Positions 294 to 4,951 of a stretch of DNA of 4,951 nt are shown in pieces. Position 1 is the stretch's first letter. Every line of letters starts with the position of its first letter. Source of the stretch: Naegleria gruberi (lineage: Eukaryota). The stretch lies in NCBI GenBank assembly GCA_000004985.1, contig GG739170.1; one strand, 5' to 3'. The notes below the pieces were generated by a model. The model saw only the letters and a list, made by a program, of their open reading frames with translations, was not told the origin of the DNA and did not search any database. Both the position numbers and the translations under genes were made by a program.

Positions 294-395
294 CTATTAT
301 ATCATTATTAAAAGTATTAATATTTCAATTAATTTCAATTAGTTATTATTAAATATTAAATTAATAAAAATATTAATAAATATATATAAACATAC
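294..395 (-). other. Spliceosomal intron, 102 nt, AT-rich, with a GTATGT donor (minus-strand reading of plus 395..390) and a TAG acceptor (plus 296..294). The first AG in the intron is the acceptor.
   Basis: The ORF track extends exon 1 through ...EKEYVYIYLLIFLLI*. The YVYIYLLIFLLI tail (the EKE is exonic) is read straight out of GTATGTTTATATATATTTATTAATATTTTTATTAA, a canonical GTATGT donor followed by Ile/Leu/Phe-only codons typical of intron read-through. Splicing to the first downstream AG restores a long open frame (exon 2). Confidence 0.6.
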
Positions 396-1168: not shown

Positions 1169-1195
1169 TTTTTTAAATTTACTTATGGAGGGAAA

Positions 1196-1440
1196 ATTTA
1201 CAGATCGTTATGCTACCACCGTTTCATTCAGCTAATATTCTAATCTTGATGTTTCAATTATTACATAATTTAATAGCATTGTTCTTCTCTTTCATTTCCA
1301 ATTAATACAGACTAAGAGGATGTTATTGGATTGACCTGATGGTGGTGGCTGGTTGCTAAGAATAAGCTTACGTGTTGCCAGCATCACTGCCAACACAACA
1401 ATAAAATCATCAGCCTAAAAAAAATGTAAGTCATCACTTG
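1196..1440. other. GC-rich island inside the divergent intergenic region. It is a candidate small ncRNA gene or conserved regulatory block; strand and exact ends are undetermined.
   Basis: Counted by hand, 1321..1380 is about 45% GC (27/60) and 1381..1440 about 35%. The flanking intergenic DNA is clearly lower in GC and the coding sequence here is about 25%. On the minus strand there are box-C-like GUGAUGA (plus 1437..1431), CUGAUGA (plus 1416..1410) and GUGAUGC (plus 1387..1381). On the plus strand, CUGAUGG sits at about 1335..1341. No clean C/D architecture or terminal stem could be built, and there are no tRNA A/B boxes. Confidence 0.25.
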
Positions 1441-1597: not shown

Positions 1598-4157
1598 ATG
1601 AATAGATTAGATATTAAAGATAAATTGGTAGCACGTTCAGAGCATCGTGTAAAATCTGTTGATATCCATCCAACAGAACCATGGGTATTATCTTCCTATT
1701 ATAATGGAAATGTTGNNNNNNNNNNNNNNNNNNNNNNNNNNNNNNNNNNNNNNNNNNNNNNNNNNNNNNNNNNNNNNNNNNNNNNNNNNNNNNNNNNNNN
1801 NNNNNNNNNNNNNNNNNNNNNNNNNNNNNNNNNNNNNNNNNNNNNNNNNNNNNNNNNNNNNNNNNNNNNNNNNNNNNNNNNNNNNNNNNNNNNNNNNNNN
1901 NNNNNNNNNNNNNNNNNNNNNNNNNNNNNNNNNNNNNNNNNNNNNNNNNNNNNNNNNNNNNNNNNNNNNNNNNNNNNNNNNNNNNNNNNNNNNNNNNNNN
2001 NNNNNNNNNNNNNNNNNNNNNNNNNNNNNNNNNNNNNNNNNNNNNNNNNNNNNNNNNNNNNNNNNNNNNNNNNNNNNNNNNNNNNNNNNNNNNNNNNNNN
2101 NNNNNNNNNNNNNNNNNNNNNNNNNNNNNNNNNNNNNNNNNNNNNNNNNNNNNNNNNNNNNNNNNNNNNNNNNNNNNNNNNNNNNNNNNNNNNNNNNNNN
2201 NNNNNNNNNNNNNNNNNNNNNNNNNNNNNNNNNNNNNNNNNNNNNNNNNNNNNNNNNNNNNNNNNNNNNNNNNNNNNNNNNNNNNNNNNNNNNNNNNNNN
2301 NNNNNNNNNNNNNNNNNNNNNNNNNNNNNNNNNNNNNNNNNNNNNNNNNNNNNNNNNNNNNNNNNNNNNNNNNNNNNNNNNNNNNNNNNNNNNNNNNNNN
2401 NNNNNNNNNNNNNNNNNNNNNNNNNNNNNNNNNNNNNNNNNNNNNNNNNNNNNNNNNNNNNNNNNNNNNNNNNNNNNNNNNNNNNNNNNNNNNNNNNNNA
2501 TTGATTTATATCCTGAAACTATGGAATATGATCCAAAAGGACATTTTATTGCAGCAGTTGGTGGTGGTGATTATAATATTTATGCAGCAGTTCAATGCGT
2601 TCAAAGACTTATGGTAGTGGTGAAGAATTAGTTTGGAGTTCAACAAGTGGATGTTATGCAGTTAGATCTAAATCTAATGAAATTAAGATTTACAAAGATT
2701 TTAAAGAATTTAAAGTATTTAAACCATTCTTTACACCAAAACAAATATTTGGTGGACAATTATTAGGTATTTCATCAAAGGAATTTATTTGTTTCTATGA
2801 TTGGGAAACATGTCAAATGATTAGAAATATTGGTATTATTCCACGTAAAGTATATTGGAATGATGATAGTGTTTTAATTGCAAGTGAAAATGAATTTTAC
2901 TTGTTGAGATATAATTCACAACTTGTTAAAAATGCTTTAAAAACAAGAAATCCAGAAGAAGAAGATTCACAAATTGAAGATTCACTTATTTTAGAATATA
3001 ATATTGAAGAAAAGATTCGTGAAGGTCAATTTATTGGTGAAACATTTATTTATACAAATAATGATTCTAGATTGAATTATGTTATTGGTGGACAAGTTAC
3101 AACAATAACACATTTAGAAGATTCTAAACATTTCTTTTTAGGTTATGTTTCTAAACATAATAGAATTTATATTATGGATAAGGAACGTAATATTCTTAGT
3201 TTTAGATTATTTGTACAAGTTTTACAATATGAAACTTTAATTTTAAGAGGTGATTTAGAAACTGCAAGTTTATTATTACCTCAAATTCCAAAAGATGAAT
3301 ATAATAGATTAGCTAAATTCCTTGATCAACAAGGATATAAACAATTAGCAATGCAAGTTACACAAGATGATGAACATTGTTTTGAAATTGCAATTCAATT
3401 AAATGATTTACAAAAAGCCTATGAAATTATTAAAAAGAGTAAATCAGCATTAGAAACTAAATGGAAACAATTAGGTCAATTAGCTTTATCACAATGTAAT
3501 ATTGAATTAGCAAGAGAATGTTTTGAATTGGGTAATGATTTTGGTGGATTATTATTATTATATTCAAGTATTGGTGATCGTGAAGGAATGATTAAATTAG
3601 CAGAAATGGCAAAGAATAATTCAACTACAAGTTATAACAATATTACATTTATGTGTTATTATTTATTAGGACAAGTTGATAATTGTATTAATTTGTTAAT
3701 TGAAACTAAACGTTTACCTGAAGCTGCTTTATTTGCTAGAACTTATGCTCCTTCTCATGTTTCAAGAGTTGTTCAATTATGGAGAAGTGAATTAACAAGT
3801 GATAATCAAAAAGTTAATTCTCAAAGATTGAAATCTATTGCTGATTCACTTGCTGATCCAATCGATTATCCAAATATGTTTAATAATTTTGGAGATTCTT
3901 TACAAGTTGAAAAATTTATGAATAGAGATTTTTATACAAAATTACAAAATAATGAACTATCTTCAAATCAATATCAAAATATTAAGAAATCTTTATATAA
4001 CACTGATTGGATTGAACAATATAAACAAGAAGGTGAATCTCAATTTAAAATTAATTATATTCATCAAGAAGTAGAAGAAGTACAAGTTGAAGAAAAGGAA
4101 TCATCAACTACTCCAATTGATACCACTACCACTACAACTACTCCACAAGAAGAATAA
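1598..4157 (+). CDS. COPB2: Coatomer (COPI) subunit beta-prime, a WD40 plus alpha-solenoid protein. Segments are 1598..1715 (N-terminus, frame 2), the assembly gap 1716..2499, 2500..2595 (frame 1), an apparent 1-nt deletion at about 2596..2597, and 2598..4157 (frame 0, stop TAA at 4155..4157).
   Basis: N-terminus [39 protein letters not shown] is near-identical in pattern to the metazoan COPB2 N-terminus ([39 protein letters not shown]). After the gap, [32 protein letters not shown] aligns with human ...[31 protein letters not shown]. Continuing in the next frame, [70 protein letters not shown] aligns with [71 protein letters not shown]. Further colinear matches include [44 protein letters not shown] and SLADP. 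The symbol is given as the orthology-group name, not a verified locus name for this organism. Confidence 0.9.
1716..2499. other. Assembly gap: a run of 784 N (scaffold gap), falling in the WD40-repeat region of the coatomer gene.
   Basis: Direct reading. The track ORFs 1659..2504 and most of 1598..2617 are poly-X artefacts of translating N. Confidence 0.99.
4122..4142 (+). repeat. In-frame (ACN)7 tract encoding Thr7 in the C-terminal tail of coatomer beta-prime (...[18 protein letters not shown]).
   Basis: Direct reading: acc act acc act aca act act in frame 0. Confidence 0.85.
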
Positions 4158-4253: not shown

Positions 4254-4951
4254 ATGATTGAAAAATTGAATCAATTATTTAATAGTTTAATGTCATCACA
4301 ACAAAAGATGAGTGAATTGTCATTATTTGGAAAGTTATCATCTTCATCATCACTGACACAAATATTAATATTTATTATTAGTATTATAACAGGTGGATTC
4401 CGATATTATCAAACAATTAATAGAAAATCAATAACATTTAATTCAATACCATCACTACAATCATCCAATAATAATAATTTATCATCATCAAATGTAAATA
4501 ATCAACAACAACAACAAATAAGGAAAGTATTAACATCACCTTATTTTGGAGAGAGACCACATTATTTTCTACCACCATCAGATGTAGAACAATACAGAAA
4601 AACCATCAGTAATAATTCTAATAATTCTAATAATTCTAATTCCAATAATAATAATAATAATATTAAAAAACAAATAGAACATTATTATATTCCATATCCG
4701 AATGATCCACCACATACATTTCCATCAATCAAGGCTAGAAATTTATTTACAAAATCACCTAAAAAATTAAGTCAAATTTATATAGAAAGAATTGATCCTA
4801 TTAATAGATCTAATTTAAGAACAGGTGCTAAATTAAAAGTACCTTTACAACAATTAGAAGAAAGATTTAGAACTGTTTATTCAAATGCAAATGAAAATGG
4901 TTTAGAAATTACTATTAATAGTAAATCAGATAAACCTTTTGAAAAATTAGG
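4254..4951 (+). CDS. 5' portion (232 codons, open to the window end) of a gene not in the supplied ORF track. The predicted protein is single-pass membrane, type II-like. It has a short N-terminal tail, a hydrophobic segment LTQILIFIISIITGGF (nt 4353..4400), then an N/Q/S-rich low-complexity stem and a globular region (...HYYIPYPNDPPHTFPSIKARNLFTKSPKKLSQIYIERIDPINRSNLRTGAKLKVPLQQLEERFRTVYSNANENGLEITINSKSDKPFEKL...).
   Basis: Hand translation from the ATG at 4254 (context AAAAAAAATG) in frame 0 gives no stop codon through 4951. An in-frame TAA at 4233..4235 upstream makes 4254 the first possible start. In-frame AAT/CAA tracts and codon usage resemble the neighbouring genes. The family is not recognised. 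The topology resembles Golgi glycosyltransferases, but that is speculation. Confidence 0.55.
   Translation, partial: MIEKLNQLFNSLMSSQQKMSELSLFGKLSSSSSLTQILIFIISIITGGFRYYQTINRKSITFNSIPSLQSSNNNNLSSSNVNNQQQQQIRKVLTSPYFGERPHYFLPPSDVEQYRKTISNNSNNSNNSNSNNNNNNIKKQIEHYYIPYPNDPPHTFPSIKARNLFTKSPKKLSQIYIERIDPINRSNLRTGAKLKVPLQQLEERFRTVYSNANENGLEITINSKSDKPFEKL
4611..4637 (+). repeat. 9-bp tandem repeat (AATAATTCT)x3 followed by a degenerate copy and an (AAT)6 run (4644..4661). It lies in-frame within the downstream gene and encodes SNNSNNSNNSNSNNNNNN.
   Basis: Direct reading of 4611..4661. Confidence 0.85.

Follow-up and report, generated by a model that had tools for sequence, protein, structure and literature searches.

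The window (the whole stretch of DNA that was analysed, 4951 nt) is a small draft scaffold from the heterolobosean amoeboflagellate Naegleria gruberi (Heterolobosea). Its plus-strand ORF 2604–4154 was 100% identical to the N. gruberi NCBI protein named 'coatomer subunit' (β′-COP), and a spliced ORF on the minus strand was 100% identical to the N. gruberi predicted protein P0121. A dictyostelid origin had been assumed in the earlier note on this DNA; the identity of the β′-COP ORF contradicts this, and since the host is Naegleria, the dictyostelid premise (DUSE elements, class I RNAs and GC islands) on which a small ncRNA gene had been proposed falls with it. The two genes are arranged head to head. 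The minus-strand gene, with its ATG at 1168, is composed of exon 1 (396–1168), an intron (294–395) and exon 2 (1–293), and specifies a Naegleria-specific protein of unknown function, 57–58% identical to its N. lovaniensis and N. fowleri counterparts. The start codon of β′-COP lies at 1598 on the plus strand, where residues 1–39 of the N. fowleri protein align to 1598–1714 with 89.7% identity. A spacer of 429 nt (1169–1597) separates the divergent start codons 1168 and 1598, and most of it is taken up by the GC-elevated block at 1196–1440 that is the subject of this work. The β′-COP coding sequence is broken by an N gap (1716–2499) plus a 1-nt frameshift near 2592, because of which the NCBI model of the protein is partial (520 aa); both mark a draft-quality scaffold or an assembly error. 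The frame changes within 2500–2620, residues 379–409 of the N. fowleri protein aligning in frame 1 and residues 410–931 in frame 3. A third plus-strand ORF (4254–4951), rich in runs of Asn, Ser and Gln, leaves the scaffold at its end.

The GC elevation for which the block had been singled out was confirmed: its overall GC content is 34.3%, with a peak of 45% (27/60) at 1321–1380, and the spacer on either side (1169–1195 and 1441–1597) contains 22–23%. The scaffold as a whole has 25.9% GC; when it was read in 100-nt windows the maximum was found at 1301–1400 (43%), the highest value elsewhere being 40%. The block had also been described as richer in GC than nearby coding DNA, which holds only in part, the adjoining coding stretch 904–1148 reaching 34.7%. 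The contrast is weaker than claimed because of this coding stretch and because the mean GC content of the N. gruberi genome is 35% (PMC9928731, Table 1). With a composition close to the genome mean, the block is therefore GC-rich only against an unusually AT-rich scaffold, and the compositional observation, while real, is unremarkable for the N. gruberi genome. In N. lovaniensis and N. fowleri the corresponding spacers contain 35–37% GC, much like the coding sequences that flank them (30–45%).

Orthologous loci were recovered via the flanking proteins. They came from N. lovaniensis (L003; PYSW02000025.1), N. fowleri (L005; VFQX01000044.1, with a second isolate, L006), Willaertia magna (L001/L002) and an uncultured Naegleria-like organism represented in three metagenome or read-set assemblies (L007–L009). 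The divergent gene pair is kept in synteny in N. lovaniensis and N. fowleri. In the uncultured taxon, whose β′-COP shares 76% identity with that of N. fowleri, the upstream neighbour of β′-COP is a different, same-strand ORF of 138 aa (L007 871–1287), and in W. magna it is a divergent SNF2 helicase (L001 5019–9614). Synteny upstream of β′-COP is not fixed across taxa. Global alignment of the spacer with those of Willaertia and N. lovaniensis produced no alignable block, and the spacers of N. lovaniensis, N. fowleri and the uncultured taxon share no conserved block of 60–150 nt with it. Conservation of the block, which the earlier note had expected to be telling, was thus not seen in any of the four related taxa (the Naegleria relatives and Willaertia). 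When the N. lovaniensis and N. fowleri spacers were compared with each other, just two blocks passed E ≤ 0.05. An 11-mer, ATCACTTGCCG, common to the N. gruberi and N. fowleri sequences gave E = 0.88 and was therefore treated as a chance match. Contigs derived from transcripts were looked for in N. fowleri and the uncultured taxon, but all those obtained were genomic, and two metagenome scans for closer relatives provided no usable loci.

At the left edge of the block, the motif ATTTTCCCTCCATAA (minus strand, 1183–1197) precedes the ATG of the minus-strand gene by 15–29 nt. Its equivalents, ATTTGCCGCCCTTTA in N. lovaniensis and ATTTGCCGCCCATAA in N. fowleri, occupy equivalent places, giving a consensus conserved in three species, ATTT[G/T]CC[G/C][C/T]CC[A/T]T[A/T]A, at window 1197..1183. 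The block that holds this motif in the comparison of N. lovaniensis with N. fowleri had a blastn E value of 2.8e-6. A further string, AAAATTTACAG (1193–1203), is common to N. lovaniensis and N. fowleri, where it is found in opposite orientation. Together with CTGTAAATTTT, the consensus motif is located 16–64 nt before the start codon of the minus-strand gene (window 1183–1203; L003 ∼5921–5960; L005 ∼5947–5985). ATTTTCCCTCCATAA is probably a promoter or leader element of this gene. The E2F consensus is TTTSSCGC; the string TTTGCCGC, which the motif contains in N. lovaniensis and N. fowleri, resembles it.

A different set of conserved elements faces β′-COP. The hexamer ACGTGT (plus strand, 1370–1375), a box with an ACGT core, has a single copy in the window and is rare across the 13-kb loci. 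Four taxa (N. gruberi, N. lovaniensis, N. fowleri and the uncultured one, L007/L009) have it 36–56 nt upstream of a GT donor. In the region examined (18–100 nt upstream of the donor; 25–100 nt in L007), any 6-mer common to all four would be expected 0.004 times (P = 0.0036). The donor itself follows an A-run: A8T at 1417–1425 (plus strand) would form the 3′ end of a non-coding exon 1 of β′-COP, the donor G being at 1426. The 15-mer AAAAAAATGTAAGTC at this place is identical in N. lovaniensis (E = 0.012), and a match of 33 nt to N. fowleri (E = 0.002) covers it as well; among the N. gruberi matches, those provided by A7TGTAAGT(C) ranked first apart from repeats, and a higher score was reached in N. 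fowleri by a match at a CAA repeat. The string AAAAAAAT is common to all taxa. With a slash marking the junction, the A-run and donor read AAAAAAAAT/GTAAGT in N. gruberi, AAAAAAAT/GTAAGT in N. lovaniensis and N. fowleri, and AAAAAAAATTCCAAAGG/GTAGGT in the uncultured taxon. The order of the elements is conserved too, ACGTGT being followed by the A-run that ends in the 5′ splice site, and this by a stretch free of AG. The uncultured taxon (L007/L009) keeps ACGTGTTGCAAGC, the A-run and GTAGGT despite its different neighbour; these elements therefore belong to β′-COP. Since its position and order are kept in the orthologous promoters beyond chance, ACGTGT is a candidate conserved promoter element. 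It may be a transcription-factor site of the β′-COP promoter, to which a factor would bind, or else part of exon 1; the β′-COP transcription start would be expected at ∼1376–1417 in the first case and farther upstream in the second. Both ACGTGT and the donor are missing from Willaertia magna, which counts against reading the region as a promoter and leader intron.

Most of the annotated introns that were resolved at the loci of N. lovaniensis and N. fowleri use a donor identical to GTAAGT at 1426–1431. The first AG past this hexamer belongs to tatatAG at 1576–1577, 20 nt before the ATG, and donor and AG together would delimit a putative 5′-UTR intron of 152 nt (plus strand, 1426–1577; GTAAGT...tatatAG) with a GC content of 26%. 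The rest of the 5′ UTR, 1578–1597, would be the start of exon 2, directly upstream of the ATG at 1598. Directly after the donor, the sense strand has a run free of AG, which measures 144 nt (N. gruberi), 231 nt (N. lovaniensis), 293 nt (N. fowleri) or 72 nt (L007). For the two long runs, those of N. lovaniensis and N. fowleri, ∼10–11 AG would be expected from the composition; GA is present in them 13–18 times, and none of 20,000 mononucleotide shuffles was AG-free (0/20,000). Neither strand of the whole 13-kb locus of either species has a longer AG-free run. In N. gruberi and L007 the P value was ∼0.055, the N. gruberi sequence being G-poor and the L007 segment short; that the run is only marginal in N. 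gruberi itself counts against an intron. The runs end 18–154 nt before the β′-COP ATG, at tatatAG/c, aaatAG/c, gaaAG/c and atcAG/t. The equivalent splice junctions would lie on the minus strand in L003 (5756 down to 5518) and L005 (5743 down to 5443).

As a control, annotated CDS introns of N. gruberi, N. lovaniensis and N. fowleri were reconstructed within these loci, and those that could be resolved unambiguously were examined (L003 6798–6959 and 9572–10860; L005 6849–6962; window 294–395). They start with GTAAGT or GTATGT, end in (A/T)ATAG and contain 0–1 internal AG versus 6–14 GA; one ranks second in length among the AG-free runs of its strand. Such near-AG-free introns suggest that the first AG is chosen as the 3′ splice site, a possible cue for finding introns. 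Because 1426–1577 bears the same signature as these annotated Naegleria introns, a donor, an interior and an acceptor can be recognized in it, and a GT-AG intron in the 5′ UTR of β′-COP is put forward as putative. Its removal by splicing, and a β′-COP transcription start upstream of 1425, would follow from this arrangement. One feature counts against it: T precedes the donor in three species, while the exon upstream of the annotated introns ends in G or A. The predicted exon junction (...AAT/CAA...) makes no start codon. A start codon split by the intron was considered and rejected, as AT/GTAAGT needs an acceptor followed by G and none is present. A hidden coding exon was likewise rejected: the ORFs in the block are ≤46 aa and unsupported, and the N-terminus of β′-COP at 1598 is conserved. 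The longest ORFs had previously been put at ∼29 codons; those overlapping the block measured 31, 34 and 46 aa. The L007, L008 and L009 contigs are genomic, and all of them retain the putative intron segment.

The proposal that 1196–1440 contains a small ncRNA gene (box C/D, H/ACA or lineage-specific) transcribed independently of the flanking genes had rested on its GC content, on several strings of the UGAUGA type and on a hairpin. The strings exist: GUGAUGA at 1437..1431 and GUGAUGC at 1387..1381 of the minus strand are where they had been placed, CUGAUGA on the same strand is at 1413..1407 rather than 1416..1410, and the plus-strand CUGAUGG, given as about 1335..1341, is at 1336–1342. The imperfect inverted repeat GTTGCCA-gcatcac-TGCCAAC is also real, with 7 bp and one mismatch, but occupies 1374–1394 instead of 1373..1394; N. 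lovaniensis and N. fowleri have no counterpart of it. Pentamers of the TGATG type are enriched in 1120–1600 (six observed versus 1.8 expected; 0.7% of shuffles reach six), which would agree with a ncRNA gene, as would the position of the window's locally highest GC content. When 1000–1700 was compared with Rfam at permissive E-values, only chance-level matches were obtained (≤18.4 bits versus gathering scores of 39–65). These included weak C/D-like alignments on the minus strand at 1379–1449, to snoR64a (17.8 bits) and SNORD41 (15.2 bits), with E = 2.8–7.6; the gathering scores of these two families are 45 and 41 bits. At the gathering score there was no match in the window or in three orthologous loci, so that the covariance-model search suggested in the earlier note came nowhere near any Rfam threshold. 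ARAGORN detected 0 tRNA or tmRNA genes.

Searches for the individual features of snoRNA genes gave similar results. The perfect minus-strand C box at 1437..1431 is followed only by a CUGA, 17 nt downstream, with neither a terminal D box nor a stem; in a custom scan, C and D boxes backed by a stem were found only with degenerate C boxes (AGGAUGA and GUGUUGA, at 1527 and 1491), outside the island. The heuristic scan for H/ACA layouts (hairpin, ANANNA hinge, hairpin, and ACA 3 nt from the 3′-end) gave a best layout of –29.6 kcal/mol, within the range of the shuffle bests (–21.0 ± 4.4 kcal/mol; minimum –30.0), and its second hairpin contributed just –4.8 kcal/mol. These custom scans agree with the statement made earlier that no canonical box C/D or H/ACA fold could be assembled. 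Compared with dinucleotide shuffles, the whole block folded no better than expected (z = –1.37 for the plus strand and +0.94 for the minus strand), nor did the core at 1328–1400 (z = –1.32 and –0.34 for the two strands), and the most stable local hairpin (1337–1395; z = –1.32) was not significant. The RNAalifold consensus over four taxa contained 0 predicted pairs. Given this result and the lack of an overall alignment of the spacers, the region holds no conserved unit of the snoRNA or snRNA type. The dictyostelid DUSE is a CCCAYAA-type element located ∼60 nt upstream of ncRNAs. Neither this element, the upstream presence of which had been proposed as a check, nor the 11-nt class I RNA motif CCUUACAGCAA was found above chance frequency. 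The literature searched on Naegleria snoRNAs, UTR introns and promoter motifs contained nothing specific. An ncRNA gene recognized by dictyostelid rules therefore failed the Rfam, C/D, H/ACA, folding, conservation and DUSE/class I tests alike.

Taken with moderate confidence, the block is best explained as the regulatory and leader region of the two divergent genes, including exon 1 of β′-COP and the beginning of a leader intron, and not as an RNA gene. Its left edge (1183–1203) would carry elements of the minus-strand gene; the middle, which includes the GC peak, is not conserved; and the right half would be formed by the β′-COP promoter with the ACGTGT box, followed by a short non-coding exon 1 ending at 1425. 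A spliceosomal intron (1426–1577) would part this leader from exon 2, which would start 20 nt before the ATG at 1598, so that the last 15 nt of the block (to 1440) would already be intron. The GC excess would be the usual contrast of a promoter and exon with an intron of 26% GC and a spacer of 22–23% GC. The two alternatives named in the earlier note, a bidirectional-promoter element or a 5′-UTR exon, fit the motifs found at both ends of the block and the conserved 5′ splice site at 1426. That the GC-richest part (1321–1369) is not conserved counts against the promoter and leader-exon explanation. This part is also where a residual form of the RNA proposal would be placed, a small RNA confined to N. 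gruberi within 1321–1369, which no result supports. A companion conjecture is a regulatory switch in which retention of the leader intron exposes a start-stop mini-uORF that curbs β′-COP translation or sets off decay, while splicing removes this uORF. We consider both very improbable.

An independently transcribed ncRNA gene we regard as highly improbable. The perfect C box with its nearby CUGA, the weak snoR64a and SNORD41 alignments, the TGATG enrichment and the local GC maximum speak for it. Against these stand Rfam scores far under the gathering values, in the orthologous loci as well, a good C box that is left without a terminal partner while the stem-backed pairs are degenerate and outside the island, an H/ACA-like layout indistinguishable from shuffled sequence, ordinary folding energies with an empty four-taxon consensus, spacers that share no block of the size of such a gene, and a dictyostelid rationale that is inapplicable to Naegleria. 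Unlikely, but less so, is that the block is plain promoter or spacer DNA with a fluctuation in GC content, in which ACGTGT and the A-run with GTAAGT are DNA-level elements or chance occurrences and there is no intron. The block has the GC content of the genome mean, most of it is unconserved, and the AG-free run of N. gruberi taken alone is not significant; this last point, the marginal statistics of N. gruberi by itself, is the main reason why the explanation retains some probability. It leaves unaccounted for a strand-specific AG-free zone that begins precisely at the conserved GTAAGT and that no other run exceeds in two independent 13-kb loci; this zone matches a property of the annotated introns of the same loci, and the donor hexamer is the 5′ splice site that those introns use.

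The sequence around the donor might also have been kept for another reason. If the RNA is unspliced, ATG at 1424–1426 and TAA at 1427–1429 make a start-stop mini-uORF, and A7–8-AUG-UAA in an unspliced β′-COP leader could then act on translation or mRNA stability, GTAAGT being retained merely through its overlap with it. For this reading speak the identity of AAAAAAATGTAA in N. gruberi, N. lovaniensis and N. fowleri, an A-rich context like the one in which the neighbouring gene starts (AAAAAAATGCC), and extra copies of ATGTAA downstream (one in N. lovaniensis and two in N. fowleri). The uncultured taxon, however, has no ATG there and yet keeps the GT donor, both extra N. fowleri copies stem from one tandem duplication, and neither the strand-specific AG-free zone (≤293 nt) nor the (A/T)ATAG-type acceptor would be explained. 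We therefore think a uORF improbable as the reason for the conservation. The Arabidopsis gene NIP5;1 carries a minimal AUG-UAA uORF. The β′-COP sequence is like it in having AUGUAA in an A-rich 5′ leader context conserved in three species, but differs in that AUGUAA is missing from the fourth taxon, overlaps the 5′ splice site and would be lost if the leader is spliced.

The preferred explanation, a promoter and leader exon followed by a UTR intron, would most likely be an ordinary feature and unsurprising to a specialist. The segment 1426–1577 resembles a 5′-UTR spliceosomal intron in its GTAAGT donor, in its AG acceptor shortly before the start codon, in being AT-richer than the upstream exon and promoter, in a position relative to the gene that is kept in four taxa, and in an interior depleted of AG as in Naegleria CDS introns. 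It departs from one in that it is unannotated in the genomes examined and predicted from sequence, in that the upstream exon ends in T, and in its absence from Willaertia. The 429-nt spacer resembles a bidirectional promoter, with head-to-head genes and separate conserved motifs near each; the persistence of the β′-COP elements beside a same-strand neighbour makes them gene-specific, not truly shared. With a box C/D snoRNA the block has in common RUGAUGA and CUGA strings and a GC content above its flanks, but it has no terminal C/D pairing, conserved guide, conservation or significant covariance-model score. With the class I and DUSE-driven ncRNA genes of Dictyostelium it shares only the idea of a GC island in an AT-rich spacer; the host belongs to Heterolobosea, and neither CCUUACAGCAA nor a DUSE is present above chance. 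The Dictyostelium rule by which a GC island indicates a ncRNA does not transfer to Naegleria, where the genome mean GC equals that of the island. An unannotated 5′-UTR intron and a non-coding exon 1 are predicted here for a housekeeping gene, and the near-AG-free introns of these Naegleria loci could help gene-model and UTR annotation. The literature searched gave no promoter-motif description for the group, for which ACGTGT is a candidate conserved promoter box.

Some further similarities were noted among the loci. The string ACGTGTTGC[C/A]AGC is near-identical in the window (1373–1394) and in the uncultured taxon (L007 1427–1448), and in both an imperfect palindrome of the TTGCC/GGCAA type follows it; N. 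lovaniensis and N. fowleri lack the string and the palindrome and have ACGTGTCAAT in its place. TGATG upstream of the donor is common to all four taxa, and every taxon has repeated TCATCA in the sense strand of its leader and putative intron. Read in reverse complement, the minus-strand UGAUGA-like strings are such TCATCA-type sense-strand motifs. The TGATG/CATCA enrichment could represent a cis-element or a compositional habit. Finally, the putative leader intron of N. fowleri (L005 5520–5600, minus strand) contains a tandem duplication of CATCAAATGTAA[T/C]TCATCATCATCCTACT, which adds two ATGTAA.
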